From assembly GCA_043765155.1 (NCBI GenBank), contig JAYUJP010000001.1, positions 19,268 through 83,267 on the forward strand: 64,000 bases of DNA, written 5' to 3'. Source of the DNA: a bacterium. Its GTDB lineage: Bacteria > Patescibacteriota > Minisyncoccia > Phycocordibacterales > UBA5272. Position 1 is the first letter of the stretch, and every line of letters starts with the position of its first letter. Shown piece after piece: positions 4,424 through 48,258 of the stretch. The notes under the pieces are model-generated. The model worked only from the letters and a program-made list of their open reading frames with translations. It was not told the DNA's origin and ran no database searches. Made by a program: the position numbers and the translations under genes.

Positions 4424-5020
4424 TTAATTTATGTATATTATTTCTTCTCTCAGTGCTCCTAAAGGCGCTTCAACATGAACTATTTTTTGAATCATTTTGT
4501 ACTTTAAAGCTTCTTGGGCCGATATTGTTGTGCCAGTTTCCATCATAGATTTAACTTTTTTAAGTGATATATTTGATTTTTCAGATACAAAATATGCTAT
4601 TCTGCTATTGTTTGTTTTTATAGCTGACAACTGATCTTTAAGAGCTTTTTCATCAAAATTACCAGAAACAGAAGCTCCGTGAAGATAAAATTTTGCATAA
4701 GACTCAGCGGTTCTTTCTTTAGCAGACATGTATATAACATTAGCTATAGAATCTATATGGTTTGTAGCATGTATAGCTATGGGAATTCTAGAATTTTGTA
4801 TTATTGAAGCAATAAGAAATCCGTCATATATACTACCTCCAAGTGAAGAAAATATTATTACAATTTTACTAACTGCGATACCTTCTATATTAATACTTTG
4901 AATAGCATTTACTAACCTTAATGTTGATGGCTGATCTATATCAGAAAGCTGAGTGTAGAACTCGTCATTCTTTGCTTTGTTAGCACTACGAAGGTTTTTA
5001 TTTGAAGATTTACTTTGCAT
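4424..5020 (-). CDS. ClpP/crotonase-fold serine-peptidase-like protein (peptidase S14-like) with a divergent active-site region.
   Basis: FSSLGGSIYDGFLI aligns with ClpP NSPGGxITAGMAIYD. The Ser and His regions are only partly conserved (HIDSIA, FYLHGAS). Confidence 0.45.
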   Translation of the reverse strand: MQSKSSNKNLRSANKAKNDEFYTQLSDIDQPSTLRLVNAIQSINIEGIAVSKIVIIFSSLGGSIYDGFLIASIIQNSRIPIAIHATNHIDSIANVIYMSAKERTAESYAKFYLHGASVSGNFDEKALKDQLSAIKTNNSRIAYFVSEKSNISLKKVKSMMETGTTISAQEALKYKMIQKIVHVEAPLGALREEIIYIN

Positions 5021-5040
5021 ACTTTTATTTCCAAAAGGTG

Positions 5041-5111
5041 CGGGCCCACAAGGAATCGAACCTTGACCAACGGATTTGGAGGCCGTCGTACTACCACTAT
5101 ACTATAAGCCC
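5041..5111 (-). tRNA. tRNA-Trp (anticodon CCA).
   Basis: The minus-strand sequence GGGCTTA...GTAT/GTAC D-arm...ACGGC-CTCCAAA-TCCGT...CAAGG-TTCGATT-CCTTG...TGGGCCC-G folds as a cloverleaf. The T-loop GGTTCGATTCC is present. The plus-strand ORF at 5002..5190 is spurious. Confidence 0.8.
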
Positions 5112-5266
5112 TAAAATGTTACTAAAAATGCGAACAGGATTCCCCATTCCTACAGACACACCGCTAAGCATGCACTTTTTAAGCTTGTGACTTAAAAAGA
5201 AAGTTTAACATTTTCAGTAACATATACATTATAACATAATATCCTAAAATAATAAAAGCTACATAT

Positions 5267-5298
5267 TAAAAGCTGGTCGCGAAGCGACCAGCTTTTAA
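5267..5298. terminator. Intrinsic terminator hairpin (AAAAGCTGGTCGC-gaa-GCGACCAGCTTTT) downstream of rpmG.
   Basis: 13-bp stem. U-tracts are present on both strands. Confidence 0.55.
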
Positions 5299-5325
5299 TA
5301 TGTGTTTTTGCAAAAAGGTTATATA

Positions 5326-5481
5326 TTACTTCTTGGCCTCTTTAAAGTTAACATGCTTACGTAGTTTTGGATCATATTTCTTAAGCTCTATCTTGCGAGT
5401 TACTTTCTTCTTATTTTTGGTAGTGTATATTGTAGTACCTGTTGCCTTATTTATTATTTTTATCAATCTATCTTGTGACAT
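5326..5481 (-). CDS. rpmG: 50S ribosomal protein L33 (51 aa). It was missed by the ORF track, which has a 60-aa cutoff.
   Basis: Manual translation gives MSQDRLIKIINKATGTTIYTTKNKKKVTRKIELKKYDPKLRKHVNFKEAKK. This matches the L33 signature (YxTxKNKxxxPxKLELKKYDPxxRKHVxxKE). It lacks the zinc-binding Cys residues (C-minus type). Confidence 0.8.
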   Translation of the reverse strand: MSQDRLIKIINKATGTTIYTTKNKKKVTRKIELKKYDPKLRKHVNFKEAKK

Positions 5482-5548
5482 ATATTTATTGTGTGCTGTG
5501 AATTTAGTCCTTGTATTATACTATAATTTTTATACTTTTGCAATTGTA

Positions 5549-7516
5549 TTATTTTACCAGCTCATAGTCTATAACACGCATCTCCAAGTTAGCGCTTTTG
5601 ACCCTTATTTTTAGCTTATCACCTATACGAAATATCTGCCCTGATCTCTCACCTACTATCGCATTTTTCTTTTCGTCATAATCATAAAAATCATTACCTA
5701 GGTCGCGTAGCCTTATCATACCTTCACATTTTGACTTTTTATCCTGAGCATACACCCCAAACTTTGTGACTCCAGACAGAACCCCCTCAAATACTTGCCC
5801 TATACGCTCGCTCATATACTCCACCTGCTTATACTTGATACTACCACGCTCGGCATCACTGGCCTCTTTTTCTCTATAACTTGCGTGTATACATAATTTT
5901 TCTAGTGCCATACGCTCCTCCTCTTTTGGCAGGTCACCGGTGAGTATTCTCATCAACAGTCTATGGGTGAGCACATCAGGATATCTTCTTATCGGTGAGG
6001 TAAAGTGTGAATAATGCTCAAAAGCGAGCCCATAATGCCCGACATTATGAGTGCTGTATATCGCTTTTTGCATAGATCTTGTTATATTACTCTGCAGTAA
6101 TTCTTTTTCTGGGCGACCCTCCATTCTGGTGAGTAAGTCATTGAGATCTTTGGATGGTATTGCGCCGTCGATAAATTTAACTTTTTCTCCTATGCCTTTT
6201 ATAAAAAGATCAAGGTCATGCATCTTATCAGCGTCAGGCTTATCATGTATACGATACACACATAGCGGCTCCTTTAGATCTTTTTGGCTACTTGTTATAA
6301 ATTCTGAGACTTTTCTATTAGCGAGTAGCATCAGCTCCTCGATCAGCTTATGAGTGTCACCACGATGCTTTACATATACGTCTACAGGCTTACCATTTTC
6401 GTCCAGCTTGAACTTTACCTCTTCACTATCAAGTATAAGCGCGCCGGCCTCTAATCTTTTGGCAAATAATTTTTTGGCTATTTTATTAAGAGTGTTTAGC
6501 TCTGTACTATGTAGCCCGTTTGTGTCCATACTCTCTTGAGCATTCTCATATGAGAATCTTTTGGCGCTACATATAACGCTACGTCCATACCACTCATCAT
6601 ATATTTTGCCATCCATATCAATGGTAAATACAGCTGACATTACTAGTCTGTCTTTTGCTTCTACTAATGAGCATAGATCATTTGAAAGTTCTTCGGGTAA
6701 CATAGGTATACATCTGTCCACCAGGTACACGCTGGTCTCACGCTCTATAGATTCATCATCTAGGGCCATGCCTGGGCGCACATAATGCGACACATCAGCT
6801 ATGTGGACACCGACTTCTAATTTTAAAATATTCCCCTCATTATCTTTTTCTATAACTTTATAGCTAATAGCATCGTCAAAGTCTTTTGCATCCACTGGGT
6901 CAATAGTAAAGGTTAGTACGTCACGAAAATCTCGCCTGCTACTTTTCTCCTCTTCTGTTATACCGTGTACACTTATTTCCCTCGCTTCTTTTTGTACTGA
7001 CTCATTATGCTCATCTGAGAATCCTTTTTCTATAGCATAAGCTAACATCTCGGCATTATTTTCACCAGGCTTACCCAGGTTTTTGACTACACGGCCAAAA
7101 GCAGTATCTCCGTCCACCCACTCGACTATTTCGACGGCGACTTTGTTATTTTCATCAGCTCCAAGAGTAGCGCCTTTATCAACGTAAATTTTTACATAAT
7201 TTTTGCTATCATGTGGGGCAAAAATATAATACTTATCATCTTTACTTTCTAGCTCAGTATTTATTATTAATTTACCAGCATGGGCGCGCTTACTTTTATT
7301 TATAACTGAGATAACTTTACCATAATAACCATCCTCATCTTTGCCCGATATCTCGACTAACACTCTGTCACCTTGCATCGCTCTATTTAGATATTTGTGC
7401 ATTACAAATACGCTCTCATAGTCGAGCTCGGGCATTTTTATATATGCATCACAACCTGATTCATTTGCTTTCGTCAGAGTCACCTGCCCCTCATATCTTT
7501 TTCCATCTAGATTCAT
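5549..7516 (-). CDS. rnr: Ribonuclease R / RNase II-family 3'-5' exoribonuclease with a C-terminal S1 domain.
   Basis: N-terminal cold-shock/OB region, a central RNB catalytic domain (DxxDxDDA-like VDAKDFDDAIS) and a C-terminal S1-like segment. Confidence 0.85.
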   Translation of the reverse strand: MNLDGKRYEGQVTLTKANESGCDAYIKMPELDYESVFVMHKYLNRAMQGDRVLVEISGKDEDGYYGKVISVINKSKRAHAGKLIINTELESKDDKYYIFAPHDSKNYVKIYVDKGATLGADENNKVAVEIVEWVDGDTAFGRVVKNLGKPGENNAEMLAYAIEKGFSDEHNESVQKEAREISVHGITEEEKSSRRDFRDVLTFTIDPVDAKDFDDAISYKVIEKDNEGNILKLEVGVHIADVSHYVRPGMALDDESIERETSVYLVDRCIPMLPEELSNDLCSLVEAKDRLVMSAVFTIDMDGKIYDEWYGRSVICSAKRFSYENAQESMDTNGLHSTELNTLNKIAKKLFAKRLEAGALILDSEEVKFKLDENGKPVDVYVKHRGDTHKLIEELMLLANRKVSEFITSSQKDLKEPLCVYRIHDKPDADKMHDLDLFIKGIGEKVKFIDGAIPSKDLNDLLTRMEGRPEKELLQSNITRSMQKAIYSTHNVGHYGLAFEHYSHFTSPIRRYPDVLTHRLLMRILTGDLPKEEERMALEKLCIHASYREKEASDAERGSIKYKQVEYMSERIGQVFEGVLSGVTKFGVYAQDKKSKCEGMIRLRDLGNDFYDYDEKKNAIVGERSGQIFRIGDKLKIRVKSANLEMRVIDYELVK

Positions 7517-13784: not shown

Positions 13785-14891
13785 TTACCAGTCTAGACTT
13801 CCTCCTGTCTTATACTCGGTAACTCTTGTCTCAAAGAAGTTCTTCTCTTTTGAAAGGTCTACTGCCTCACTCATCCAAGTAAATGGATTATGTGAACCGT
13901 ATAATATTGGTAGCCCTACTCTCTGTAATCTCCTGTCTGCAATATGCTCGATGTATTGCTTGAATCCCTCTGCATTGAGTCCAAATATTCCTTTTGGAAA
14001 TACGTCCTGCGCAAAAGTGTATTCTAGCTTAACCGCCTCATCAATAAGGGCGATAATACGAGCTTGGAATTCTGCTGTCCATAATTCTGGCTGCTCTTCT
14101 TTTATAGTATTAATCATATCTATACCAAAGTTAAGATGCTGGCTCTCGTCACGCATGATATATTGTATCTGCTCAGCGCTACCTGGAAGTTTATTTTGCC
14201 TTTGAAATCCAAACATAACTGCAAAGCTTGAATAAAAGAATATACCCTCGAGTATTAGTGAGAACACACAAATATTTTCTAAGAACTTTTGATCAGCTTC
14301 AAATGTACCAGTCTTAAAGTTAGGGTTAAGTACACCGTCGTTAAAACTTAAAACAAATTTATCTTTGTTATATATAGCGTCCACCTCACGGTACATATTA
14401 AATATCTCTGGACCATCAAGGCCGAGTGACTCTACGATGTACTGATAAGCCTGAGTATGTATAGCCTCTTCATAGGCCTGCCTTAATAGATACATACGCG
14501 CCTCAGGACTTGTGATGTGTTTATAGGTCGCTATAACTAGGTTATTAGCGGCTATCGAGTCAGCAGTCGAGAAGAATCCTATTACCATTTTAAGAGCATG
14601 CCTCTCATCATCGGTAAGTACATCTTTACTTTTCCATTGCTCTATATCTAGCTGCATACTTATCTCAGTAGGTAGCCAGTGATTCTGATTACCAGCATTG
14701 TATGCATCCCAAGCAAAAGTATGCTTGAGTGGATGTAGCTGTATCACATCGGCATTTTTACCATTAATCATACGTCTATCATTAATAGATACACGCCCTG
14801 CATCACGGTTAAGACTCTGAGCTATCTCCGCGTCATGTAAACTACTTACTAATACTATATTATCACTTGTTTTTGTTAATGTATCTTGCAT
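13785..14891 (-). CDS. nrdB: Class I ribonucleotide reductase small (beta, R2) subunit.
   Basis: Ferritin-like di-iron motifs (EEAIHTQAY, EGIFFYSSFA, RDESQHLNF), a conserved radical-site region and a C-terminal tail. Confidence 0.85.
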   Translation of the reverse strand: MQDTLTKTSDNIVLVSSLHDAEIAQSLNRDAGRVSINDRRMINGKNADVIQLHPLKHTFAWDAYNAGNQNHWLPTEISMQLDIEQWKSKDVLTDDERHALKMVIGFFSTADSIAANNLVIATYKHITSPEARMYLLRQAYEEAIHTQAYQYIVESLGLDGPEIFNMYREVDAIYNKDKFVLSFNDGVLNPNFKTGTFEADQKFLENICVFSLILEGIFFYSSFAVMFGFQRQNKLPGSAEQIQYIMRDESQHLNFGIDMINTIKEEQPELWTAEFQARIIALIDEAVKLEYTFAQDVFPKGIFGLNAEGFKQYIEHIADRRLQRVGLPILYGSHNPFTWMSEAVDLSKEKNFFETRVTEYKTGGSLDW

Positions 14892-16203: not shown

Positions 16204-19176
16204 CTACTGGCACCCATCACATGTAGACTCGGGAGCTACTGTTATGTTATAGGCTGTTTTTGTTGCCGGCGCTGCACCCATATTGTATACTGCGGGCTGC
16301 GCAGGGTTAACCGTACTTGAGTTATTACTTGAAGCGGCGCTACTCATGCTTATCGGCTCTGGAGCTGCAGATATATTCATGGCTGATATTGGTGACGCTA
16401 CTGGACCAGGTATTTTTGTATCATTCATAATACCTACTACTGGATTATCAAGAGGTGTTGTATTTTTACTATCTCTCTTGTGTGTAGCTCCAAATTCTGC
16501 GCTGCTAACTGTACTCTTCTCAACCTGACTTGCTCCTAGTGAGCGGAGATAATAGGTAGTCTTGAGTCCCATTTTCCATGCGTACTCGTATATACTAGCC
16601 AAATCTTTTCCACTTGTACCTGCATAATATATATTGAGTGACTGTGACTGATCTATCCACTTTGCCCTATAGGCCGCAGTTCTGATTAGCCATTTTGCGT
16701 CTATTTCAAATACCTCTTTGTATTTATCTTTTAAGTCCTGAGGTACTGTTGTTATATTTCTAACACTACCATCATTATACTTTAGCTGGCCCATCATTTC
16801 ATAATCCCAAAGATTTCTAGCCTTTAAATCTTTTACAAGATATGGATTTATAACTATAAAGTCACCGTTCATATTTGCCTTTACGTATATATTTTTATAT
16901 ATTGGCTCTATACATGGTATTGACCCGACGATATTTGATATAGTCGCTGTCGGAGCTACTGCCATACAGTTACTGTTACGCATACCATAATTTTTAACAT
17001 TTGCCCTAACCAGTGACCAGTCAAGCTTACCCTCTTTTGAGACGTCGATATGCTCACCGCGTGACTCCTCGAGTAGCCTTAGCGTATCTTGAGGCATCAT
17101 ACCCCTATCCCATTTACTACCCTTATAACTCTCATATGCTCCGCGTTCTTTTGCCAGCTCGCTACTTGCGAGTATTGCATTATAAGATATAATCTCCATA
17201 CTCTCGTCTGAGAATATTACCGCTTGCTCACTATCAAAATTAATATTTAACTTGTATAGTGCGTCATGGAAACCCATCACTCCAAGTCCGACCGGCCTAT
17301 GTCTAAAGTTAGAATTTTTAGCCTCAATGGTTGGGTAAAAATTAATATCTATCACGTTATCGAGCATACGCATCGCGGTCTTAATAGTACTAGCGACTAG
17401 GTCCTTGTCGAGAGCGCCGTTTATAATATGCGCTTCATAATTAAATGAACCCAAATTACATACTGCGGTCTCCTCTAGGTTATTATTAAGAGTAATCTCT
17501 GTACACAGATTAGAATTACGCACTATACCGGCATGATCCTGAGGTGATCTTACATTTGATGGGTCCTTAAAAGTAATCCAAGGATGCCCTGTCTCAAATA
17601 GCATTGTTATCTGCTTTTTCCAAAGATCGCGCGCCTTCATCTCTTTGAATAATTTTATCTCACCAGCTTTCGCCTTAGCTTCATAAGCTATATAATTATT
17701 TTCAAAGTCCTTACCATAACTCTCGGTTAATAGTGGCACCTCTTCTGGTGAAAATAGTGTCCAGGCTCCGTCCTCACGCACACGCTTCATAAATGTATCT
17801 GAGATCCATAATGCAGTATTCATGTCATGTGTCCTACGTCTCTCGTCTCCAGTATTTTTACGTAGCTCAAGGAACTCCTCCACATCTAGATGCCAATTCT
17901 CAAGATACACGCACGCCGCCCCTCTTCTTCTGCCTGATCTATTAATAGCAACTGTCGAGCTGTCAGCTATTTTTAGAAAAGGTATAATACCATTACTCTT
18001 GATACCTGACCCCTTAACTAGTGCTCCGCTCGCACGTACATTGGTCCAATTAGTTCCTATACCGCCGGCCCATTTAGAGAGCTGTGCATTGTCCCCATAT
18101 ACTTTGTATATACTCTCCAGATCATCTCCAACACTATTTAGATAGCAAGATGATAGCTGTGGGTGATGTGTACCTGCATGAAATAATGTAGGTGATGATG
18201 GTACAAACTTCATAGTGGACATAACATTATAGAACTCTACAGCTTTTTCATTTTTATTTTCCGCTTTTTCTGATATAGCTAGGCCCATAGCTGTTCTCAT
18301 CCAGAAACCCTGAAGATCCTCAAGTATACGCCTAGTATCATTTGTATCCCTGACAAAATATCTCTCGTACAGTGTCTGCGTACCCATATACATCATAAGG
18401 TCATCACGCTTATAGTCCATAGCGTCTACTATCTTTTCTAGGTCAAAGTCATTCATTCTTGGATCTATATAACCCTTCTCTATTCCAAATTTTAAATTCT
18501 TGTTAAAAGATTGACGTAGAGAGCTATGTAGCTTATTATGATCTTTTATTTTTTCACCAACATGCTCAGCATACACGTCACGCATAAGTAATCTTGATGC
18601 TACATAACTATAAGCCGGGTCCAACTCTATCATTGAGCGCACTATCATAACTACTAGCCTAGCTAATTCTTTTGTGGTTATACCATCATGAACCTCCAGC
18701 TTTATCTGTGATATTATCTTTTCTATGTCTATCTCTTTTTCAAATCCGCCCACCACATAACCTAGTGACTTTCTCATTTTCTTTTCTGAAAAGCCCTGCA
18801 TTCTGCCATCACGTTTTGTTACCTTAAGCGCGCTCTCTTCTAATTTTTCTAGGTCCTCTAGCTTTTTCTCATCACGTATTTTCTGATGCTCATATCTGTA
18901 TATAATGTATTCCTTAGCTACATCAAAAAATCCTGCACTCATTATGTGCTTCTCGACAAGGTCCTGCACATGCTCCACACTAGGAGTATATTCCTCACGT
19001 GTCATAGCCTCAAGCTCTAGCTCTTTTTGTACTAGCTCACTAATATGCTTAGATACTTGCGCGTGCTCATCACGAGTGATTTGTATAAAAGCTTTCTTAA
19101 CTACATTTTCTATTTTTGACATTTCAAATGGGACTACTTCATTATTTCTTTTTTTGATAAAAGTTAAAGGATTCAT
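16204..19176 (-). CDS. nrdA: Class I ribonucleotide reductase large (alpha) subunit. It has an N-terminal ATP-cone and a C-terminal low-complexity tail of about 110 aa ending in CDGCQ.
   Basis: N-terminal ATP-cone (VVPFEMSKIENVVKKA...). Catalytic-core motifs include NLCTEI, PTATIS and SCYLNS. The C-terminal CxxC redox pair is present. Confidence 0.9.
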   Translation of the reverse strand: MNPLTFIKKRNNEVVPFEMSKIENVVKKAFIQITRDEHAQVSKHISELVQKELELEAMTREEYTPSVEHVQDLVEKHIMSAGFFDVAKEYIIYRYEHQKIRDEKKLEDLEKLEESALKVTKRDGRMQGFSEKKMRKSLGYVVGGFEKEIDIEKIISQIKLEVHDGITTKELARLVVMIVRSMIELDPAYSYVASRLLMRDVYAEHVGEKIKDHNKLHSSLRQSFNKNLKFGIEKGYIDPRMNDFDLEKIVDAMDYKRDDLMMYMGTQTLYERYFVRDTNDTRRILEDLQGFWMRTAMGLAISEKAENKNEKAVEFYNVMSTMKFVPSSPTLFHAGTHHPQLSSCYLNSVGDDLESIYKVYGDNAQLSKWAGGIGTNWTNVRASGALVKGSGIKSNGIIPFLKIADSSTVAINRSGRRRGAACVYLENWHLDVEEFLELRKNTGDERRRTHDMNTALWISDTFMKRVREDGAWTLFSPEEVPLLTESYGKDFENNYIAYEAKAKAGEIKLFKEMKARDLWKKQITMLFETGHPWITFKDPSNVRSPQDHAGIVRNSNLCTEITLNNNLEETAVCNLGSFNYEAHIINGALDKDLVASTIKTAMRMLDNVIDINFYPTIEAKNSNFRHRPVGLGVMGFHDALYKLNINFDSEQAVIFSDESMEIISYNAILASSELAKERGAYESYKGSKWDRGMMPQDTLRLLEESRGEHIDVSKEGKLDWSLVRANVKNYGMRNSNCMAVAPTATISNIVGSIPCIEPIYKNIYVKANMNGDFIVINPYLVKDLKARNLWDYEMMGQLKYNDGSVRNITTVPQDLKDKYKEVFEIDAKWLIRTAAYRAKWIDQSQSLNIYYAGTSGKDLASIYEYAWKMGLKTTYYLRSLGASQVEKSTVSSAEFGATHKRDSKNTTPLDNPVVGIMNDTKIPGPVASPISAMNISAAPEPISMSSAASSNNSSTVNPAQPAVYNMGAAPATKTAYNITVAPESTCDGCQ

Positions 19177-19550
19177 ATTTTTTTGTAAATTGTTTTTATA
19201 ATAATTTGACTATAAACTTGGCAGTTTCTAATATTAGTATATTACTACAAAAAATAGATAACTTTACAACACTTTTTGCGTATGTAAATAGTATTTTAAT
19301 CAAAACAAAAATAACTTTAACATGGGTACTAATAATGTCAAATAAAATACGCAAAATATTTTAAAATAAAGCTTAAAATAAACTTCTAAGCATAAATTAA
19401 ACTATTTTTTAGCAAAACATAATGTATATTTTGAAAAGTTATAGGATTATAAAAGTTATACACAGAGAAAATATTAAGTTGCTATTTTTATATATCTGTG
19501 TTATTATTTTATTGGATTTTGAATTTTTAAAATTTTAAAGGGAAAGTCAA

Positions 19551-23013: not shown

Positions 23014-23775
23014 TTAGATCTTACCAACAAGGTCCACCCCTGGAGTTAGTACGTCGTCACCTGGTTCCCATTTTGCAGGACATACATTAGCACCGTTTTC
23101 ACGGACAAATTTGGCCGCTTGTAACTTTCTATATAACTCCTTTGCATTACGCCCTATGCCATTGTCATTGATCTCTATAATACGTAATACTCCGTCTGGA
23201 TCTATTACAAATGTACCGCGCATGGCCATGCCTTCGTCCTTTACTAGCACATTATAATATCTTGCTAGCTCATGAGTAGTATCAGCAAGCATAGGGAAAT
23301 TAATTTTCTTTATAGTATCACTAGCGTCATGCCATGCCTTATGCGCGTACACGCTATCAGTCGATATAGCTAACACCTCAGCACCGAGGGCCTTGAACTT
23401 TTCATAATACTCAGACATATCCTCAAGCTCAGTAGGACATACAAAAGTAAAGTCAGCTGGATAAAAAAACAATACCACCCACTTATCAGCATAATCTGAG
23501 AGCATTACGTCTTTTATTTTACCTTCATGAAAAGCTTGTAAGCTAAAATCATCTACATTTTTACCTATAGTAACTGTCTCACTGGCCATGTCACTGTAAA
23601 AAGAATTCTGATTAAGACTTTTCATACAAGCTCCCCCATTTTGACATGGACAATCTTCACATCCCTGGCCGCAGCAGCCTCCATTTGCTCCGCATGTATT
23701 ATTTCCACACATATTCATATTATCATCTTCTCCACTTGTGTTATTCATGTTATCATTTTTTTTAAAGCCGAACAT
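23014..23775 (-). CDS. Typical 2-Cys peroxiredoxin (AhpC/Prx1 family) with an N-terminal Cys-rich extension of about 50 aa, which is unusual.
   Basis: The peroxidatic Cys motif FTFVCPTE and the resolving Cys VCPAKW are present. The N-terminal MCGNNTCGANGGCCGQGCEDCPCQNGGAC carries 9 Cys in 30 residues. Confidence 0.8.
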   Translation of the reverse strand: MFGFKKNDNMNNTSGEDDNMNMCGNNTCGANGGCCGQGCEDCPCQNGGACMKSLNQNSFYSDMASETVTIGKNVDDFSLQAFHEGKIKDVMLSDYADKWVVLFFYPADFTFVCPTELEDMSEYYEKFKALGAEVLAISTDSVYAHKAWHDASDTIKKINFPMLADTTHELARYYNVLVKDEGMAMRGTFVIDPDGVLRIIEINDNGIGRNAKELYRKLQAAKFVRENGANVCPAKWEPGDDVLTPGVDLVGKI

Positions 23776-23831: not shown

Positions 23832-25013
23832 ATGCAAAACGTAAATAAAAATGACAACGAAAAAGACTTGGCAAAAATAATAATAGTAATTGGCCCAACG
23901 GCAAGTGGTAAGTCAGACTTAGCTGTTAGCATTGCAAAAGAGATACAAGAAACTGGATACGCAACTATTGAGAAACTAGATTCTAGAAATAAAATATATA
24001 AAAAAGTATTTTTTGATAAAAAAGAATGCGTAATAATCTCAGCTGATAGCAGGCAGATATATAAACACTTAGATATTGGATCTGGTAAGATCACAAAAGA
24101 AGAAATGCAAAATATTCAACATTTTGGACTTGATATAGTTGAACCTAAGTATAACCTAATAGAAAATATAGCTAATAAAAGTACTTTAGAAATGAGAAAT
24201 GAAAATGAATTAAATGCAGAAAAAAAAGACGAAGAAAAAAATAAAATAGAAATATATAAAAACTTCACAGCTGCAGATTGGCTTAGATACGCTACAGATA
24301 AAATAGACAATATAATAAATGAAAACAAGATACCTATAATATGCGGTGGCACTGGGTTATATGTAGACGCCCTACTGTATGGACTAGATGATAATCCAGA
24401 GCCGGATTATATTTTTAGGAAAACTCTCGAAAACAAAACTACAGAAGATATAAAAGATATGATAAAAGAAAAGCTAGCTGAGCAAGATGACTTAGATTAT
24501 TTTTATAATCTTAATAATAGCGAGCAAAATAATAGAAATAGACTTATAAGAAAATTAGAGCTGCTTAACTCAGGGCATAAAATAAAAAATACAGATCTAG
24601 ATAACTCAAAACGAACCCTAAGATATAATGCAGAATTTATTATATTAGAACCAGAATTAGATACTTTACAAGAAAAGATAAAGTTAAGATTAGAAAAGAG
24701 ACTAGGTTTAAATGAAAAAGAAAATAATATAAATAATAGCGCCGCAAGCGTAGCTTGCGGCAGAGAAAGTGAAAAGAATTTAATAGAAAACATAAACTCT
24801 AGCCCATTAATATCAGAAATCAAAGGCCTAATAGAAAATAAAAAAGCAGATCCAAAGTGGTTAATGTCGCTAGGATTAGAATATAAATATGTCACTGAGT
24901 ACGTACTGGGGCAAATAAGTTTTGAGGAGATGGTTGATATCTTAAATATAAAAATATTTCAATATGCCAAAAGGCAAATCAAGTGGAATAGGAGATATGA
25001 GGGACTAAAGTAA
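23832..25013 (+). CDS. miaA: tRNA dimethylallyltransferase (isopentenyl-tRNA transferase) with low-complexity insertions.
   Basis: P-loop GPTASGKS and the motif SADSRQIYKxLDIGSGKIT are present. The C-terminus is MiaA-like. Confidence 0.8.
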   Translation: MQNVNKNDNEKDLAKIIIVIGPTASGKSDLAVSIAKEIQETGYATIEKLDSRNKIYKKVFFDKKECVIISADSRQIYKHLDIGSGKITKEEMQNIQHFGLDIVEPKYNLIENIANKSTLEMRNENELNAEKKDEEKNKIEIYKNFTAADWLRYATDKIDNIINENKIPIICGGTGLYVDALLYGLDDNPEPDYIFRKTLENKTTEDIKDMIKEKLAEQDDLDYFYNLNNSEQNNRNRLIRKLELLNSGHKIKNTDLDNSKRTLRYNAEFIILEPELDTLQEKIKLRLEKRLGLNEKENNINNSAASVACGRESEKNLIENINSSPLISEIKGLIENKKADPKWLMSLGLEYKYVTEYVLGQISFEEMVDILNIKIFQYAKRQIKWNRRYEGLK

Positions 25014-25406
25014 GATCTCAATAAGAGGTCTAGTTACAAATTCTCTCTCATATATTTTTGGATGTGGTATTTCTAACTTTTCAGTTTTAATTTTTAGATT
25101 ATTAAAAAATAAAATATCTATGTCTATTATCCTTGGACCGTTACTCTCTTCCCTTACTCTACCCATCTCACTCATTATGAGTTCTATTCTGTCTAAAAGT
25201 TCAAAGTGATCTAAACTAGTATAGGCTATACACACAGCATTACAAAAGTCAGCCTGGTCTAGCTTATACATTGGCTTTGTAATATAAAAACTAGAAACTT
25301 TTTCTACTTCTCCAATCTTCTCACTTATCAGCTCTACAGCTTTATTTAAATTTAAATTAATATCTCCCGTATTACTACCCAGTGCCAAGTATACTTTATT
25401 TTGCAT
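25005..25406 (-). CDS. folK: 6-hydroxymethyl-7,8-dihydropterin pyrophosphokinase (HPPK).
   Basis: VYLALGSN...RIIDIDIL is the HPPK signature. Confidence 0.8.
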   Translation of the reverse strand: MQNKVYLALGSNTGDINLNLNKAVELISEKIGEVEKVSSFYITKPMYKLDQADFCNAVCIAYTSLDHFELLDRIELIMSEMGRVREESNGPRIIDIDILFFNNLKIKTEKLEIPHPKIYEREFVTRPLIEILL

Positions 25407-25410
25407 ATTT

Positions 25411-25788
25411 TTAATCTCTTGTTAATTTTAAATTAATACCAACTTCGCAGTCTTTTAATAATTTACTTTTCATGATTGACAGCTCTACACTTTCTCTATT
25501 TTCACAATCTGATAATATTTTTTGACAGATTTTATAAGCTAAGTGCTCTATGGTATTTTTCGTCTCTGCGTGAAATATTTTTATTATCTCCTCTCTTATC
25601 TCGGCGTAGCATTTGTTGGCTGGTAGCTTATCAATATCCGCATAATCACTTTCAAATTTTGTCTCGACTATAACATTAACTACAAATTCTTGAGCTTCTA
25701 TTTTCTCTATCGGCAAAAGCCCGTGCTTGGCTATTATTTTAAAATCTTTTATTATTAGTTTATATATCATATTCTTTTTTTGTTTCAA
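25411..25788 (-). CDS. folB: Dihydroneopterin aldolase.
   Basis: Length of 125 aa and the FolB-like core (IKDFKIIAKHGLLPIEKIEAQEFVVNV). It lies within the folate operon. Confidence 0.7.
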   Translation of the reverse strand: MKQKKNMIYKLIIKDFKIIAKHGLLPIEKIEAQEFVVNVIVETKFESDYADIDKLPANKCYAEIREEIIKIFHAETKNTIEHLAYKICQKILSDCENRESVELSIMKSKLLKDCEVGINLKLTRD

Positions 25789-25864: not shown

Positions 25865-27487
25865 TTACAAACCATCCCCATAACTGTTTATTAATTTTTG
25901 ATAATCTTCAGGATTTTTGGTATATTGCCTAAATCCAAGTGAGATTCTACTTTCACCCTCTTCTAATTTTTTTATATAATGTATAGGCCGCTGTTTTATG
26001 TTCATAAAGTCATAACCGCGCATGAGTATAATATCTCCAGGGCTTGCTTGTATATATTTTTCTCCATTACACTCCCTATCTTTTGCGATATAGAATTTTG
26101 AATCTCCTTCGATCAGCATCACAGCTACTAGCCCGACAAACCCTTTTTGATCCTGATGCGGTGGTATGGAAAATTTATCTTCGTTTTTATTCTCGTAACC
26201 CTGCTCTTTTTTTAATTTATTTTCTAGTGGTATGATTTTGTTTAAGTTATTATTTTCTTTTTTATGATTACCATAATCCTGCAATATTACATTATCAAAT
26301 TTTACTTTATCTAGATTATACTTTTCTAATTCACAATTTAAATTGTATTCTATATGATTTTTAAGATCCTCAAAAAAGTTTTTATTTATAAAATTAGTCT
26401 TTTGAAAAAAGTTTTGATATATAGCTCCTATTGTCGGCGAGCTGGTCATACCTATTCTGCTCTCTCTTTTAATTATTTTTAGAATATGAGATATTTTATC
26501 TCTGGCATTTTCTATATTTTTTAATTCTTCATCCTCTTCTTGATTTATTTTTAAAGTAGTTACCCCAATATTAACATCAAGTAATTCTCGCACATTCTGC
26601 TCAGTGATTTTGTACTTAAAATTAGAAAATATATCTAGACTATTTTCTGCATCACACATTTCTTTGTAATATTTTATATTATGAGTTCTAAATATTATAT
26701 TGTTACTTTTATTTTTAATAAAAGCGTGCATTATACTAGTTATATGATCGGCTTCTTTTACGTCATTGTCTCCTGTGATATTTCTTAAGAATTTCTTCCT
26801 AGATATGCCAATTAGCAGTTTAACACTAGGATATTTTTGATTTATTATTTTCATAATATAATCTAACTCTCTTAATATTTCTAGATTATCTTTTTCCCTT
26901 TTTGAAAATCCAATACAAGGGTCTATTATTATTCTATTATTTTCTATACCCAGACTTTTTAAGATATCAATCTTATTGTCGAAGTATTCTATAAGCTCAG
27001 ACACCATATCGTCATAATCATACTTAGAGTGTGTGGTTTCAAATTCTCCCTTAATATGACCTATTATGTATTTTATATTTTTATACTTAGATATAAGCTT
27101 AAACATTTTATGGTCTAGCTCACCACCAGAAATATCATTAACAATATCAGCTCCGCACTCTATGGCAACTTTTGCAACCTCACTTCTAAAAGTATCTACT
27201 GAGATTTGATACTCTAGATTATTAATTTGTCTATATTTTGCTAGAAACTTTACAGCTTTTCCTATTAACTCTTTTTCTAACTCTACAGATATAAGCTCAG
27301 CTTTATGATTAGTCGCTTGGGCGCCTATATCTATAATATCTGCTTTATATTTTATCGCTTCTTTTATTTTCATCTCTAAATATTCATAGCTAGCGTCACC
27401 CTTTTCACTAAAGCTACTTTCTGTAAGATTAATTATATACATAGATATATTTTTAATGTCTAGGTTTTTTATATTTTTTTCTATCAT
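25865..27487 (-). CDS. folP: Dihydropteroate synthase (first 290 aa or so) fused to a C-terminal AlkB-like Fe(II)/2-oxoglutarate dioxygenase domain.
   Basis: DHPS motifs are DIIDIGAQATN and ISVDTFRSEVAKVAIECGADIVNDISGG. The C-terminal HQDQKGFVGLVAVMLIEGDSKFYI...ASPGDIILMRGY...RPIHYI parallels AlkB HQDKDE...VSLG...LxHGDxxVxGG...HGV (HxD...H triad). Confidence 0.75.
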   Translation of the reverse strand: MIEKNIKNLDIKNISMYIINLTESSFSEKGDASYEYLEMKIKEAIKYKADIIDIGAQATNHKAELISVELEKELIGKAVKFLAKYRQINNLEYQISVDTFRSEVAKVAIECGADIVNDISGGELDHKMFKLISKYKNIKYIIGHIKGEFETTHSKYDYDDMVSELIEYFDNKIDILKSLGIENNRIIIDPCIGFSKREKDNLEILRELDYIMKIINQKYPSVKLLIGISRKKFLRNITGDNDVKEADHITSIMHAFIKNKSNNIIFRTHNIKYYKEMCDAENSLDIFSNFKYKITEQNVRELLDVNIGVTTLKINQEEDEELKNIENARDKISHILKIIKRESRIGMTSSPTIGAIYQNFFQKTNFINKNFFEDLKNHIEYNLNCELEKYNLDKVKFDNVILQDYGNHKKENNNLNKIIPLENKLKKEQGYENKNEDKFSIPPHQDQKGFVGLVAVMLIEGDSKFYIAKDRECNGEKYIQASPGDIILMRGYDFMNIKQRPIHYIKKLEEGESRISLGFRQYTKNPEDYQKLINSYGDGL

Positions 27488-27709
27488 ACTTTTTATATTT
27501 TATTACTTATATTTATTACTAGTTACTCTTTTGTAAATATATTATAATCTTTCTAAAAATAAAATAAAAATAATTAATAAAAAATACAAATAAACTATAT
27601 ATAATATGATTAAAACAGAACTTATAATAATATTCAGAAGAGTTGAATAAATTATAAAAAATAAAGTATTTGTGTTATAATTAGTTTAATAAATACAGCA
27701 AGTAAAATT

Positions 27710-28450
27710 ATGAAGGAAAAAATTTTAATAGAGATGATAGAAAATATGGGGCTAACAAATAAGGAGGCAACTCTCTATTTTAATCTTTTAAAACTTAAAA
27801 AGGCTACTGCGTATGAGCTAGGTAAGAATATTAACTCTATATCTAACGCCTATAATATACTTAACTCTCTGCAGAAAAAGTCGCTAGTGACTAAAGTCAA
27901 AATTAAGAATAAAACTATTTATACCGCCAAAAGACTGGAGGAATTTATAGCTGAAAAGCAGGATATGAGTAATATAATTTTTAAAAATATATTAAGCTTA
28001 TACCAAAAAGTAAATACAGGTAACGACACTAATATAAAAATATGGTCCGACTCTAAAAATACAAAAGAAGCCATACTTTATGGGCTAAGCGGCCTCACTG
28101 ACAAAAAATTATACTGCGTTTATCCGTCCAGAGCCAAGCTATCAATCTCGCCTGCCGAGTCAGTTTATATTTTTACTAATAGGTATATACATGAACTAGG
28201 TATCAAAAAGATTATACTTTCTGAAAAGAAAGTGCGCGAAGAATATACTCTTGCTGACAAAGAGTTCGGATTTGAGCGCTACACTAGTGATAACAAAATA
28301 CTAGAGAAAATATCTGACGCCAAGACTGGATTTGAAATAGCTGAGAATAGGTTTATAAAAATATACTTTTATTCTGAGGGGCTTATTATCTGCATAGAAA
28401 ACAAAAATTTGGCTAACATATCTCTAGAGATACTTAGAGGATCATATTAA
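27710..28450 (+). CDS. TrmB-family winged-HTH transcriptional regulator.
   Basis: The N-terminal LGLTNKEATLYFNLLKLKKATAYELGKNINSISNAYNILNSLQKKSLV matches the TrmB HTH pattern. Confidence 0.5.
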   Translation: MKEKILIEMIENMGLTNKEATLYFNLLKLKKATAYELGKNINSISNAYNILNSLQKKSLVTKVKIKNKTIYTAKRLEEFIAEKQDMSNIIFKNILSLYQKVNTGNDTNIKIWSDSKNTKEAILYGLSGLTDKKLYCVYPSRAKLSISPAESVYIFTNRYIHELGIKKIILSEKKVREEYTLADKEFGFERYTSDNKILEKISDAKTGFEIAENRFIKIYFYSEGLIICIENKNLANISLEILRGSY

Positions 28451-40266: not shown

Positions 40267-40966
40267 GTGGTGTCCTTGGTCAAAAAATGTTTTTTATTTA
40301 TTCCCAAAAAGTTGAGGAGGCAAAAAAGACCTCAACATATCAAAAAGAGATATAGTTAGCAAAATATAACCGCAGTCTCGTATTTTGTATCAGAAAACAC
40401 TATATCAGTAAAACGCAGACTACGCTAGAAACTATTACTTGATTATCTGATTTTACAAAACCAAGTTCAAACTTATACAACGGCTCCAAAAGTGATACTC
40501 TTCAGAGTAAATAGAGGGGGATTAAATAAAAAATTACATAATATGATATAAACTTACTTTCAACATGTAAGCAGGTTGCCTTTTCTTACCAACTCACCAA
40601 ATGTGATAAACAAAACAAGGAAAATATGTACAAAACAAGAAAACAACACAAATCAAAAATGCTTGAGTTAAGAGCAGATAAGTTACTAAAAAATACAATC
40701 ATTAAAAATAACACAAAATATGAAAACAAGATACGTAAAAGTTAAACAATTATACACTCAAGAATATTTAGATAGCAAATTACCTGTTATCAAATTCTAG
40801 AGTTTGTGATAAAATAAATAAGCTACACCAGATCCAAAAATAATTCATAAAATCATCTAAAATATTTGTGAATAAAAACGAGGCAACGATGCGGATCCGG
40901 TGTAGCAACTTAATCTCAAAATATCGCTGCCTCATTTTTGTTTATAAACTAACTAATAAAAATAAT

Positions 40967-42670
40967 ATGTACGAAATAAATTATGGTGAACTTAAGGCAG
41001 TGAATTATAATCGTAAATCTTCTGAGTCAGAAGAGAAGCAAATACTATCTATAGACTCTCAGATTGATGAAAATAAAAAGATAGTGAGTCAATTGGGTGT
41101 TAAAAGTCTTGATATTCTGAGGGAGTCAAAGTCTGGTAAGATGTCAAATAAGAGACCAATCTTTACTCAAATGATTAAAGATATTAAGGATGGTAAGTAC
41201 GATAGCATTGTATGTTGGAAACTTGATCGTCTGGCTCGTAACATGATTGATGGCGGGGTTGTAATGGACATGTTACAGCGTGGGACTATCAAGTGCATAA
41301 TCACTCCTAGTAAGATTTATCATAGCAGCGAGAATACTCTATTACTCTCTGTTGAGTTTGGTTCTGCTAACCAATTCGTGCGTGACCTATCTGTAAATGT
41401 TAAAAGGGGTCAGACTAAGAAAGCGTCAATTGGGTTACCTCATGGTGTCGCTACACTTGGATTTTTAAATGACAGAGCGGGAGAAAAAGGAAATAAAAAA
41501 TGGCTTGTGGACGAAGATAGGCTATGGAAAATTCAAAAACTATTTGAAATGTTTTTAACTGGTAATTACTCGGCTAGCAGACTCTATGAATATGCCATAA
41601 ATGAGCTAAAATTGACTACAGTTAAGAGGAAAAGAACTGGGGGTAACAATATAGCTTTGTCTAGAATATACGATATATTTAAAGATCCCGTGTATGCTGG
41701 ATACTTCTTTTACGATGAGCAGAGATATGAACTAGATAAAAATTTACCCAGAATAATATCAGAGGCAGAATATGAAAAAGTAAAAAGTCTCTTATCAAGA
41801 AAAAATATACCTAAAACTCAACATCATAAACCTGTATACTCTGGCTATATATCTTCTCCCCTTGGGGAATATATTGGCGGAGATATAAAAAAGCAACTTA
41901 TTTGTGATTGTAAGTTCAAATTTGCTTACTCTAAAAGAGAAACCTGTCCTAAATGTCTTGTTGAGATAAGTAAGCTGTCGAACCCAAAGTTTTTAGAATA
42001 TAGAAAGTATATAAACATAAAAAGAAAGAAAGCTAAGATCCTAGATAGAACCATAAAAGTAAAATCTATAGAAGAGTCTTCTATAGATAGTCAGCTGTCT
42101 AATCATATTGAACAGAGTTTATTTTTTGCAGACGAGGTTCTTGGGTGGGCTAAAAAATATATACATGAATTAGAAAACATAGAAATGAGAAACAAAATTC
42201 TCTTTGAGAGAAATAAAGAAAGCAGGAAAATAGAGTTATCTGATAAAAAGTCAAAAATGAGAAGCAGGCTCTATGAAAATCAAATTACTAACAGTGAGTA
42301 TGGCGAAGATCTGATTAAATTAGAAAAAGAATATTCTGATACAAAAGAAGAAATAGGCGACGCAAAGATAAACTGGATTGATAAGCTAGATAAAATTATA
42401 TCAGTAAGTAAAATTGCAAGGGACACTATCCTCAATGGAACCTATAATGAAAAAAGACAACTACTTTCAGACTTTAGTCCTAACCTAGTCTGGGATGAAG
42501 AAAAACTCTTAATTAACAATAATTATTTGATAAATAAAATTATTGTGGCCATAAAAGTCTCAAATCAAGAATTTGCAAAGTACGAACCTAATTTAAGCTT
42601 TGATATACAAGGCTTAAATGAAAAAACACCCCTTAAAAGAGATGATTTTTCTATTATGCTCCGTGAGTAG
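40967..42670 (+). CDS. Large serine recombinase with resolvase/invertase catalytic domain, recombinase domain and a C-terminal zinc-ribbon/coiled-coil. The likely start is MYEINYG. The longer ORF from 40868 is probably not translated.
   Basis: The catalytic N-terminus AVNYNRKSSESEEKQ...SIDSQ (Ser nucleophile region) and DSIVCWKLDRLARN are present. CPKC marks a zinc ribbon. The stop codon overlaps tRNA-Asn. Confidence 0.8.
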   Translation: MYEINYGELKAVNYNRKSSESEEKQILSIDSQIDENKKIVSQLGVKSLDILRESKSGKMSNKRPIFTQMIKDIKDGKYDSIVCWKLDRLARNMIDGGVVMDMLQRGTIKCIITPSKIYHSSENTLLLSVEFGSANQFVRDLSVNVKRGQTKKASIGLPHGVATLGFLNDRAGEKGNKKWLVDEDRLWKIQKLFEMFLTGNYSASRLYEYAINELKLTTVKRKRTGGNNIALSRIYDIFKDPVYAGYFFYDEQRYELDKNLPRIISEAEYEKVKSLLSRKNIPKTQHHKPVYSGYISSPLGEYIGGDIKKQLICDCKFKFAYSKRETCPKCLVEISKLSNPKFLEYRKYINIKRKKAKILDRTIKVKSIEESSIDSQLSNHIEQSLFFADEVLGWAKKYIHELENIEMRNKILFERNKESRKIELSDKKSKMRSRLYENQITNSEYGEDLIKLEKEYSDTKEEIGDAKINWIDKLDKIISVSKIARDTILNGTYNEKRQLLSDFSPNLVWDEEKLLINNNYLINKIIVAIKVSNQEFAKYEPNLSFDIQGLNEKTPLKRDDFSIMLRE

Positions 42671-42730
42671 GGATCGAACCTACGACCAATTCCTTAACAG
42701 GGAACTGCTCTACCGCTGAGCTATCACGGA
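42659..42730 (-). tRNA. tRNA-Asn (anticodon GTT).
   Basis: The minus strand reads TCCGTGATAGCTCAGCGGTAGAGCAGTTCC-CTGTTAA-GGAATTGGTCGTAGGTTCGATCCCTACTCACGGA+G. The cloverleaf has a GGTTCGATCC T-loop. The 3' 12 nt overlap the recombinase stop. Confidence 0.85.
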
Positions 42731-46512: not shown

Positions 46513-48258
46513 ATGCAAAAATTTGGAAGAAGTAACTTTAAACAAAACACAACATTAGTCGACACAAAAAGATCGGCTCATATATCAAACATAAAAGATG
46601 GTGACTACAGGATAATCAATCTTGGTGGTACTGAGGAGTGCGGCAAAAATATGACGCTCATAGAGTATAAAAACAGTATACTAATCATAAATGCTGGTGC
46701 CCAATTTTCAGCTAGCTCAATGCCTGGTGTTGACTTTATAATACCAAATATAAAATATCTCGAGGAAAATAAAGACAAGATAAAAGGTGTAATATTTACA
46801 ACTAGTACTCTGGAGTATAGCGGAGCCTTTCCTTTTATAAATGAAATGTTAAATTTTCCGCGCGTATATGGTAGACATTTTACAAATACACTTATACAAA
46901 AAAGAATTGAGAATAAGGGGCTAATCTGCAAGAACGACTTTATACCTGTAGAGGATAATATATCTCTGAATATTGGTGACTTTAAAGTTAGATTTTCAAA
47001 TACTCAGTCCTCTACTCCAGACTCTATGAATATATCTATAGAGACTATAGAAGGTGATATCACTTATATGAGTGACACAAAGCTAGATAAGAATAATGTA
47101 AAAAATCTTGAGACTTTGCCTAATTTTGAAAATAACACTAAGACACTTTGCCTTATTGCTGACTCACTTAATAGTGAAGTAGGGATAAGTGAATTTGAGC
47201 TGTCTGACACAAAAGAAAAACTTAAGAAAGTATTTGCTGAGACCAAAAATAAAATATTTATAACTACTTTTGCTAATAATATATATCATATTATTAAAAT
47301 AATAGAGCTAGCCAAAGAAATGGGAAAGAAAATAATATTAGACAGCAAAACAGTAGAAGAAAATATATCTAGCGCCCAAGAGATTGGACTTATAGGTAAA
47401 ATAGATGACGTAGTCATAGATATACTTGAAAAAGATAAACATAAATCAAGTGACCTTATATATATAGTAACAGGCGAAGAAGGACGTGAGATGGATACTA
47501 TACTCAAAATAGTCGAGACTGATTACAAGGGTATCAAAATCGAGGACGGTGACATAGTAATAATGGCAACACACCCTATTATACATAATCAGCGTGCAGC
47601 CCAGAACTTAAAAGATGGACTGTCACGTGCCGGAGCTGATACTATACATTATAAGTATAGCGATATACTTATAACTCAATCAGGTAGCGGCGAGGACCTA
47701 GCCAAGATACATCGTGCCCTTACACCAAAATTCTTTATACCTATGGCTGGTTGTCACTATATGTTACGCGTACATGCTGATATAGAGAGAAGACTAGGAA
47801 CCCCTGAAAACCATATCATAATACCTGATAATGGTATGATAATCGAGATACGTGATAACTGTCAGCGTATATCTAACACCCGTGAAAAAGTAGATACCGA
47901 GGTTGTAGTAGTGGATGGGAACAAAATAGGTAAGCTGCATAATGTGGTACTAAAAGATAGAGAAATACTAGGAGCCCAAGGAGTATTCTTTATAATATCA
48001 CTCATAGACATGCGCGGTCATAAGCTGAAAAAAGCTCCGGACCTAGCAACGCGTGGATTTGTATTTTTAAAAGAGTCACAAGAATTATTAGTCGGCGCTC
48101 GTGACATGTCCAAAAATATAATCGAGGAATATCTTTATAAAAATAATCACATAGAAATAGACGACATAAAGGAGGCTCTGCAGTCACAAATAGCCAAATA
48201 CCTTATGCTAAAAACAGCTAAGCAGCCAGTCGTAATACCTATAATTATAAGAGTCTAG
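46513..48258 (+). CDS. RNase J paralog (metallo-beta-lactamase/beta-CASP fold) lacking the canonical metal-binding motifs. Probably catalytically inactive.
   Basis: It aligns along its full length to the downstream RNase J. HGHLDH is replaced by TTSTLEY, HTGD by YMSDT, and SGHA by SGSGED. The TDST-like motif is ADSLN. Confidence 0.7.
   Translation: MQKFGRSNFKQNTTLVDTKRSAHISNIKDGDYRIINLGGTEECGKNMTLIEYKNSILIINAGAQFSASSMPGVDFIIPNIKYLEENKDKIKGVIFTTSTLEYSGAFPFINEMLNFPRVYGRHFTNTLIQKRIENKGLICKNDFIPVEDNISLNIGDFKVRFSNTQSSTPDSMNISIETIEGDITYMSDTKLDKNNVKNLETLPNFENNTKTLCLIADSLNSEVGISEFELSDTKEKLKKVFAETKNKIFITTFANNIYHIIKIIELAKEMGKKIILDSKTVEENISSAQEIGLIGKIDDVVIDILEKDKHKSSDLIYIVTGEEGREMDTILKIVETDYKGIKIEDGDIVIMATHPIIHNQRAAQNLKDGLSRAGADTIHYKYSDILITQSGSGEDLAKIHRALTPKFFIPMAGCHYMLRVHADIERRLGTPENHIIIPDNGMIIEIRDNCQRISNTREKVDTEVVVVDGNKIGKLHNVVLKDREILGAQGVFFIISLIDMRGHKLKKAPDLATRGFVFLKESQELLVGARDMSKNIIEEYLYKNNHIEIDDIKEALQSQIAKYLMLKTAKQPVVIPIIIRV

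Follow-up and report, generated by a model that had tools for sequence, protein, structure and literature searches.

Folate is made by a textbook pathway that is a major target of antibiotics and in which some steps are still unassigned: the gene for the dihydroneopterin-triphosphate pyrophosphatase is missing from most genomes, and the final phosphatase and the source of para-aminobenzoic acid (pABA) in many reduced genomes are further gaps. Evidence from gene fusions and operons led in earlier work to folE2, folQ, folC2 and CT610, the last of which (CADD, COG5424, of Chlamydia) is a dimetal enzyme. The role of CT610 was recognised from the clustering of its gene and from complementation (PMC4161248; PMC1971073), and the protein has been placed in the heme-oxygenase superfamily as PqqC-like (PMC4161248). 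Fusions of dihydropteroate synthase (DHPS, FolP) have also been described, examples given in the sources being the eukaryotic FolB-FolK-FolP protein and a DHPS joined to a flavin-dependent dihydropteroate reductase (PMC4224340; PMC1971073). Here, the gene folP-X was analysed, which encodes a DHPS fused to a C-terminal domain, named X, with the fold of the Fe(II)/2-oxoglutarate (2OG) oxygenases. It lies in a stretch of 64,000 nucleotides (nt) from a bacterium of the Patescibacteriota (positions 19,268 to 83,267 of contig JAYUJP010000001.1, assembly GCA_043765155.1), hereafter the window. The fold of X and its general chemistry are known already, while the X family and its association with the pathway are new. 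The recurrence of X beside or fused to genes of the pterin branch suggests an undescribed O2-dependent step or helper in folate synthesis, and, judging from sequence and gene order, X is most likely a dedicated accessory of that branch.

The N-terminal half of the fusion protein is, by its sequence, a bona fide dihydropteroate synthase and is predicted to be a working one. Residues 16-256 matched Pterin_bind (PF00809) with an E-value of 3.8e-51, and residues 16-280 matched the DHPS equivalog TIGR01496 with 195.3 bits against a cutoff of 162.6 bits, thereby covering the whole TIM barrel. Moreover, this half aligned end to end with solved DHPS structures, the best of them being the plant hydroxymethyldihydropterin pyrophosphokinase (HPPK)-DHPS 7mpy (E 1e-34), and the alignment to it revealed that the substrate-binding motifs SVDTF, VNDISGG, DPCIGFSK, GISRKKF and FRTHNI were kept, as was SFS in loop 1. 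Loop 2 reads GAQATNHK, the Arg of the usual STRPG being absent. The closest DHPS homologues, approximately 37-40% identical, came from scattered phyla. With folB and folK downstream on the same strand, the folK-folB-folP operon recognized by a previous reading of the DNA letters alone (the sequence-only reading) was recovered. That reading had also taken the fusion to be a single gene, and a frameshift or assembly artefact was indeed rejected, because the identical product of 540 amino acids (aa) was called on nine contigs (the three places shown correspond to three different ENA assemblies) and because an orthologue of the same FolP-X architecture, 41% identical overall, was found in a second species. 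This protein (P0007, 537 aa) keeps the STRPG of loop 2, and its gene is likewise followed by folB and folK. The FolP half is joined to X with essentially no linker. Such a fusion is as unusual as had been supposed, since only two FolP-X clusters, represented by the window protein and P0007, appeared when 5.8 billion protein clusters were searched.

The oxygenase part was estimated at about 150 aa in the sequence-only reading and proved to be longer: the nearest homologues of X were standalone proteins of 228-242 aa (39-42% BLASTP identity) that aligned over 83-98% of the C-terminal segment, so the domain comprises about 250 aa (290-540). An HMMER search of 1.84 billion representatives provided 219 relatives of X at E ≤ 1e-3, and an AlphaFold2 model based on the alignment of HMMER relatives reached a mean predicted local distance difference test score (pLDDT) of 90.1 and a predicted template modelling score of 0.87. 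The predicted structure presents the double-stranded beta-helix core typical of Fe(II)/2OG oxygenases, preceded by an N-terminal half made mainly of two long helices. Furthermore, His444, His503 and Arg520 were invariant in 116 relatives, while Asp446, Arg514 and Tyr405 were conserved in at least 90% of them, in agreement with the dioxygenase fold, Fe ligands and 2OG-binding Arg that had been anticipated. Arg514, located 11 residues past His503 on the next strand, is predicted to bind the C5 carboxylate of 2OG. The pair Gln403 and Tyr405 corresponds to Asn120 and Tyr122 of AlkB, whose role in 2OG binding is known from AlkB structures. An extra Arg within an LMR(G/A) motif (Arg490 in the window) was common, together with the cofactor motifs, to all five clades examined, and it is probably near the active site because it aligns next to Trp178 of AlkB. 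The 25-aa insertion before the HxD strand was missing from all aligned homologues and was the sole long stretch of low confidence in the model (pLDDT 52-71). From the fold and the intact metal and 2OG motifs, X is predicted to be an active Fe(II)/2OG oxygenase, and its family, which is unnamed, lies at the fringe of the AlkB-type group.

The position of X relative to AlkB was assessed by profile and structure comparisons. The X domain had no Pfam or NCBIfam match even at E ≤ 1, a PDB sequence search with the domain alone or with the 116-sequence profile returned nothing significant, and no NCBIfam model was found for any clade of the family. Among the 116 relatives, 14 reached PF13532 (AlkB-type) and four reached PF03171; a set of ten relatives flagged by PF13532 scored 26-36.5 bits against a cutoff of 31.2 bits, with three above it, and one relative matched the NCBI AlkB model NF011930 with 19.7 bits against a cutoff of 267 bits. 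The hhalign comparison with Escherichia coli AlkB was weak (probability 5%, pairwise E 0.0075) and paired LQxY with LINRY, PHxD with LHQD, RPxH with LFYH and RxSLGFRQ with RYNLTFRQ, which are all the cofactor-binding elements of AlkB. PPHQDQKG (aa 442-449), ILMRGY (487-492) and RPIHYI (500-505), the motifs quoted in the sequence-only reading, were all found in place, and the pairing it had proposed was reproduced by hhalign (HQD/HQD, GDIILMRGY/GDVVVWGGE and RPIHYI/LFYHGI). Its description of the domain as AlkB-like thus holds for the cofactor residues, which are in register, but the resemblance is remote only, with no Pfam match, the low hhalign probability and a fold that is equally prolyl-hydroxylase-like. 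In fact, the scores of prolyl-hydroxylase-like enzymes in the fold comparison with X equalled or exceeded those of AlkB proteins. A prolyl-hydroxylase-like X might be a protein hydroxylase or an O2-sensing module, which would modify FolB or DHPS, or gate them, in response to the availability of O2 or 2OG; however, X genes are mostly standalone and an enzyme fused to its own protein substrate would be unusual, which makes this role highly improbable.

The gene context of the X family was read from the neighbourhoods of X genes and from contig stretches. FolB was the constant partner of X, fusions included. In Candidatus Saccharibacteria and related metagenome contigs, a divergent TrmB-family gene stands before the series folP - X - folB, with folC a few genes upstream (one genome locus and two metagenome loci in the scan with alignment A1), and folP and X are separate genes that overlap by 8 nt. 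Another lineage presented a divergent TrmB gene beside X - folB, and a 65-kb contig presented folB - X with overlapping reading frames and unrelated genes on either side. In addition, a short contig of 2 kb (L017) harboured X' - X - folE - folB - folK, the folK call being backed by BLASTP (E 9e-10) and by reading of the DNA. FolB-X fusions of 312-324 aa formed at least nine clusters (nine among 150 listed representatives), and most of them fell in a clade separate from that of the window X in a rough neighbour-joining tree, so the folate linkage did not arise as a single inherited accident. In the window, the genes of X, the FolB operon and TrmB were closest to sequences of the Saccharibacteria type, which makes an affiliation with the candidate phyla radiation (Patescibacteria) likely. 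The X' of L017 (positions 3-182) is the C-terminal fragment (last 59 residues) of a second, tandem X paralogue in which Leu takes the place of the 2OG-binding Arg equivalent to Arg514 (...TQPLLQFGLRQ), and on this substitution it could be a 2OG-independent or non-catalytic partner.

FolE, FolB, FolK, FolP and FolC were each found beside X in one cluster or another, so X replaces none of them, and its candidacy as a substitute for FolE, FolB, FolK or FolP was rejected, each of these being adjoined by X in at least one cluster. In the folP-X-folB operons of Saccharibacteria, folK was not recognisable (L003 3263-5093; L011 2862-3395; L012 5129-6959). A P-loop kinase of 171 aa (AAA_18/SKI-like) adjoins folC upstream in these loci, and some of them contain an open reading frame (ORF) of 177 aa after folB, which was rejected as a divergent HPPK for showing no similarity and no Pfam match; either the kinase or this ORF could be a non-orthologous replacement for a step of the pterin branch. 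That X occurs together with all the canonical enzymes of the pterin branch without replacing any would also be in line with a damage-control or salvage enzyme, which would remove or convert an off-pathway or damaged pterin inhibiting FolB, FolK or FolP without performing any obligatory step. The patchy spread of X (219 representative clusters vs. a near-universal pathway) points in the same direction, as does the chemical lability of dihydropterins, folate and pterin damage being treated as a recognised problem in PMC4814558. However, very small genomes keep X coupled to folB by overlapping frames and fusions, which argues for an essential contribution, and no damaged substrate is pointed to by the present data, so we judge this role to be quite unlikely.

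The family was not confined to folate genes. In two alphaproteobacterial lineages, X heads queuosine operons of the arrangement X - queA - tgt - (queF) - queG (L005/L006 6001-10430; L019 5602-10063), which a helix-turn-helix gene precedes in a metagenome-assembled genome of Tistlia sp., and there the 2OG oxygenase may act in queuosine synthesis or salvage, for instance in the oxidative release of preQ1 from queuine. Moreover, a lone hypothetical homologue was found on a plasmid of Oscillatoria nigro-viridis PCC 7112 (L022 7677-8297; NC_019764.1 41388-42008), where its neighbours are contractile-injection-system-like genes (baseplate, gp25) and genes of folate or queuosine metabolism are absent. 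This cyanobacterial protein was the only homologue in a plasmid tblastn for X and the sole one in an annotated plasmid of a cultured organism, and four scans of viral contigs with clade-specific alignments provided no X.

The position of the queuosine-linked clade among tRNA-acting enzymes, the colinearity of the cofactor motifs with AlkB and the fact that PF13532 is reached by some distant relatives, to which JGI gives the name AlkB, would fit an AlkB-type oxidative demethylase or hydroxylase of nucleic acids or tRNA, the folate linkage then being co-regulation or chance. However, fusions to FolB or FolP in separate clades and at least five operon architectures are not chance, the window X domain matches neither PF13532 nor the NCBI AlkB model, and its structural neighbours are at least as much prolyl-hydroxylase-like and small-molecule oxygenases. 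Furthermore, the domain is not basic (isoelectric point ~7.1), and no ada or other alkylation-repair gene is adjacent, the neighbours being folB, folK and the TrmB regulator. A demethylase is thus very unlikely in our view, and nothing was found in support of the moonlighting nucleic-acid repair that the sequence-only reading had offered as an option, while the coupling to pterin or pABA metabolism, its other option, is strongly favoured by comparative genomics.

The reading that we tentatively favour, on sequence and gene order, is that X may be a pterin-directed oxygenase working with FolB. By the logic of fusions and operon membership, the metabolite on which X acts would be one of the FolB step or of a step adjoining it, and, because the substrates of the queuosine clade are 7-deazaguanines, a guanine-derived bicyclic ring would be the common substrate type; by analogy, such a ring would suit an AlkB-like active site built for a purine-like base. 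With O2 and 2OG, X would oxidise a small substrate of this type by hydroxylation or by oxidative dealkylation or de-esterification. In the window clade, this substrate would be a 7,8-dihydropterin handled right beside the FolB reaction, and X would make the substrate of FolB from phosphorylated dihydroneopterin or from a salvaged neopterin-type pterin. The dephosphorylation of dihydroneopterin triphosphate is the only part of the pterin branch to which no gene has been assigned in general, and since L017, within its reach of 2 kb, holds all the pterin-branch enzymes but that step, plus X, the provision of the FolB substrate would be the likeliest specific role. As to the fusion itself, it probably originated when the stop codon separating the translationally coupled genes folP and X was lost, one such loss being sufficient given their 8-nt overlap in Saccharibacteria, and it would merely fix the co-expression and proximity of both proteins.

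That X itself fills the dephosphorylation gap between FolE and FolB is a specific reaction that we consider unlikely, and several points weigh against it and against the pterin-directed reading at large. Oxidative removal of a phosphate ester would lead to a 3'-aldehyde, not to dihydroneopterin, and we know of no Fe/2OG precedent for the cleavage of a phosphate ester. Directly upstream of the FolB-X gene of one contig (P0100, JGI 3300050046; FolB-X at 5474-6448) lies an HD-domain phosphohydrolase (YfbR-like/HD_3; 4793-5413, same strand, 60-nt gap), which resembles the FolQ2 candidates (PMC1971073), and the pyrophosphatase part may already be covered there by this HD protein. Moreover, the queuosine-linked operons comprise tRNA-level or salvage steps only, which is a misfit with a shared dihydroneopterin-triphosphate substrate, and for some X genes the neighbourhood contains nothing of pterin or queuosine metabolism.

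The direct fusion of X to DHPS, the consumer of pABA, leads to the main rival of the pterin-directed reading, namely that X supplies pABA or a pABA-Glu moiety to the fused DHPS and fills the pABA gap expected for reduced genomes without the chorismate route. In one version with AlkB-like chemistry, X would act on the C9-N10 bond of folates or pteroates that cannot be used or are damaged and, by cleaving it oxidatively, give pABA-Glu, parallel to the release of preQ1 from queuine, since folate and queuine share a 'guanine-like ring-CH2-NH-R' that is cleavable by oxidative N-dealkylation; the alphaproteobacterial X-queA-tgt-queG operons hold exactly the enzymes needed after preQ1 salvage. Genes of the pabA/B/C type were seen beside X in no neighbourhood, whereas those of FolE, FolB, FolK, FolP and FolC each were, and CT610 provides the precedent of an O2-dependent metalloenzyme in a reduced-genome folate cluster that proved to be a pABA synthase (PMC4161248). 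However, the constant partner of X is FolB and not FolP: the arrangements X-folB, folB-X and FolB-X were seen without folP in the contig stretch, L017 presents, within its 2-kb reach, pterin-branch enzymes and X only, and the FolP-X clusters are two vs. at least nine of FolB-X. Furthermore, no common metabolite suggests itself as a starting point from which an Fe/2OG enzyme would reach pABA, and the absence of the chorismate pathway is an assumption based on what is usual in genomes of the candidate phyla radiation. The supply of pABA is accordingly an improbable role, and roles in damage control, in the demethylation of nucleic acids or in the hydroxylation of proteins have a lower likelihood again. 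A new O2/2OG-dependent reaction in de novo folate synthesis, be it an oxidative route to the FolB substrate, by which the gap after GTP cyclohydrolase I would be closed, or one to pABA, with a sister clade doing likewise on 7-deazaguanines, is possible and somewhat doubtful.

In the literature searched (full text), neither the fusion of an oxygenase to FolP or FolB nor a 2OG oxygenase linked to queuosine was found described, and the 2007 SEED analysis of folate genes (PMC1971073) mentions no such fusion or oxygenase. If X performs a pathway step, a dependence on O2 and 2OG would be added to folate synthesis in Saccharibacteria-like bacteria, and a parallel function in queuosine metabolism would be suggested. 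If the reaction is a novel one, it would give a textbook vitamin pathway a new step, catalysed by an unnamed protein family.

Table 1. Position of the folP-X gene, its parts and the related features (window coordinates unless a locus is named).
Feature	Position	Strand	Description
folP-X fusion gene	25865..27487	-	Uninterrupted ORF, 540 aa plus stop codon
DHPS domain, aa 16-280	26648..27442	-	PF00809, TIGR01496
X domain, aa 290-540	25868..26620	-	Fe(II)/2OG-oxygenase fold; family without Pfam or NCBIfam model
Gln403-x-Tyr405 (LQDY), predicted 2OG-binding pair	26273..26281	-	Aligned to AlkB LINRY, Asn120/Tyr122
Asn/Lys-rich insertion, 25 aa, aa 406-430	26198..26272	-	Loop before HxD strand; window-specific
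HxD metal ligands His444, Asp446 (PPHQDQ)	26150..26158	-	Aligned to AlkB His131/Asp133
Distal metal ligand His503 (RPIHY)	25979..25981	-	Aligned to AlkB His187
RISLGFR motif, Arg514...Arg520	25928..25948	-	Aligned to AlkB RYNLTFR, Arg204...Arg210
folB, dihydroneopterin aldolase	25411..25788	-	Pfam FolB, E 3.4e-16
folK, hydroxymethyldihydropterin pyrophosphokinase	25005..25406	-	Pfam HPPK, E 9.9e-35
Intergenic region, regulator / folP-X	27488..27709		222 nt, AT-rich; presumed promoter/operator
TrmB-family regulator	27710..28450	+	Divergent from folP-X; Pfam TrmB, E 8e-11
TrmB regulators elsewhere	L001 7159-7905; L003 6270-7022; L011 38-808		Divergent from X/folB operon
DNA photolyase	53509-55089	+	
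Class I ribonucleotide reductase	13785-14891; 16204-19176	-	

The genes of the folP-X operon are closely spaced, with 76 nt between folP-X and the downstream folB and a 4-nt gap between folB and folK, all on the same strand. In public gene calls, folB starts at Met7, which yields a protein of 119 aa (so called in locus L008). No terminator-like sites were found inside the folP-X/folB/folK operon, and neither a riboswitch nor another Rfam element turned up around the operon or at 13 related loci. The region between the regulator and folP-X contains a sigma-70-like site (27678-27651, minus strand, score 10/12); an operator-like palindrome was sought there and rejected, since only weak AT-rich inverted repeats appeared. 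The orthologues of the TrmB-family regulator were full-length in three lineages (45% identity and E 4e-71 in L001; 42% and E 3e-59 in L011 of Saccharibacteria), showing a conservation similar to that of X itself and the same position beside X/folB operons, and the protein is a candidate dedicated regulator of the folate module.

No other folate, pABA or queuosine genes were found in the rest of the 64-kb window, which encodes AhpC, a photolyase and a class I ribonucleotide reductase. Reductases of this class need O2, so aerobic life is probable, which fits an O2-dependent X, and DNA photolyases often carry a folate antenna cofactor. Photolyase and reductase together point to an aerobic, light-exposed lifestyle of an organism with a small genome of low G+C content (~32%). 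The AhpC/peroxiredoxin (23014-23775, minus strand) presents an N-terminal extension of ~70 residues rich in Cys, Gly and Asn (…MCGNNTCGANGGCCGQGCEDCPCQNGGAC…), which is unusual for a 2-Cys or 1-Cys peroxiredoxin. MiaA (23832-25013, plus strand) matched its Pfam model in three separate stretches, and Asn/Lys-rich low-complexity insertions in conserved enzymes, as in X and MiaA, are typical of AT-rich reduced genomes. A large serine recombinase of 600 aa (Resolvase + Recombinase; 40868-42670, plus strand) ends at a tRNA-Asn (42658-42730, minus strand) and is preceded by several ORFs without Pfam match (~37.2-39.7 kb), and this region may be an integrated mobile element. In addition, two RNase J paralogues appear in tandem (46513-48258 and 48308-50236, plus strand), the first of which had matches to the beta-CASP and C-terminal domains only (E ≤ 1e-5), with no metallo-beta-lactamase match, and may, from these matches, be catalytically degenerate.

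Compared with the known systems, X shares with the AlkB/ALKBH proteins (PF13532, NF011930) the beta-helix fold and the colinear elements (N/Q)xY, HxD, distal His and RxxLxFRQ, and likely also the chemistry, in which an Fe(IV)-oxo species hydroxylates a position adjacent to a heteroatom of a purine-like ring. However, the spacing between the distal His and the Arg is 11 residues in X vs. 17 in AlkB, and the context of X is one of folate or queuosine genes and not of alkylation repair. The small prolyl-4-hydroxylase-like and nucleoside-antibiotic 2OG oxygenases (vCPH 5c5t, PasI 9ei7, PolD 9blq and PHD2) are only 9-12% identical to X and have no sequence signature in common with it beyond the facial triad; their substrates are peptidyl proline and octosyl acid nucleotides, with no link to folate operons. 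The likeness to CT610 is functional only and hypothetical, as an O2-dependent metalloenzyme in a reduced-genome folate cluster, whereas its fold is unrelated to the beta-helix of X, it is not 2OG-dependent, and the main link of X is to FolB, not to the whole cluster. FolQ/NudB (Nudix) and FolQ2 (HD), known through fol-gene clustering (PMC1971073), occupy the position between FolE and FolB that is proposed for X, but they are hydrolases of unrelated folds and X has no Nudix or HD match; because X retains a complete 2OG-oxygenase cofactor site, a dephosphorylation by X would have to be oxidative. Finally, the fusion resembles other multidomain DHPS proteins, in which DHPS is joined to a second enzyme of its own pathway; the partners there are established enzymes of that pathway, whereas X is an oxygenase without an assigned pathway step.

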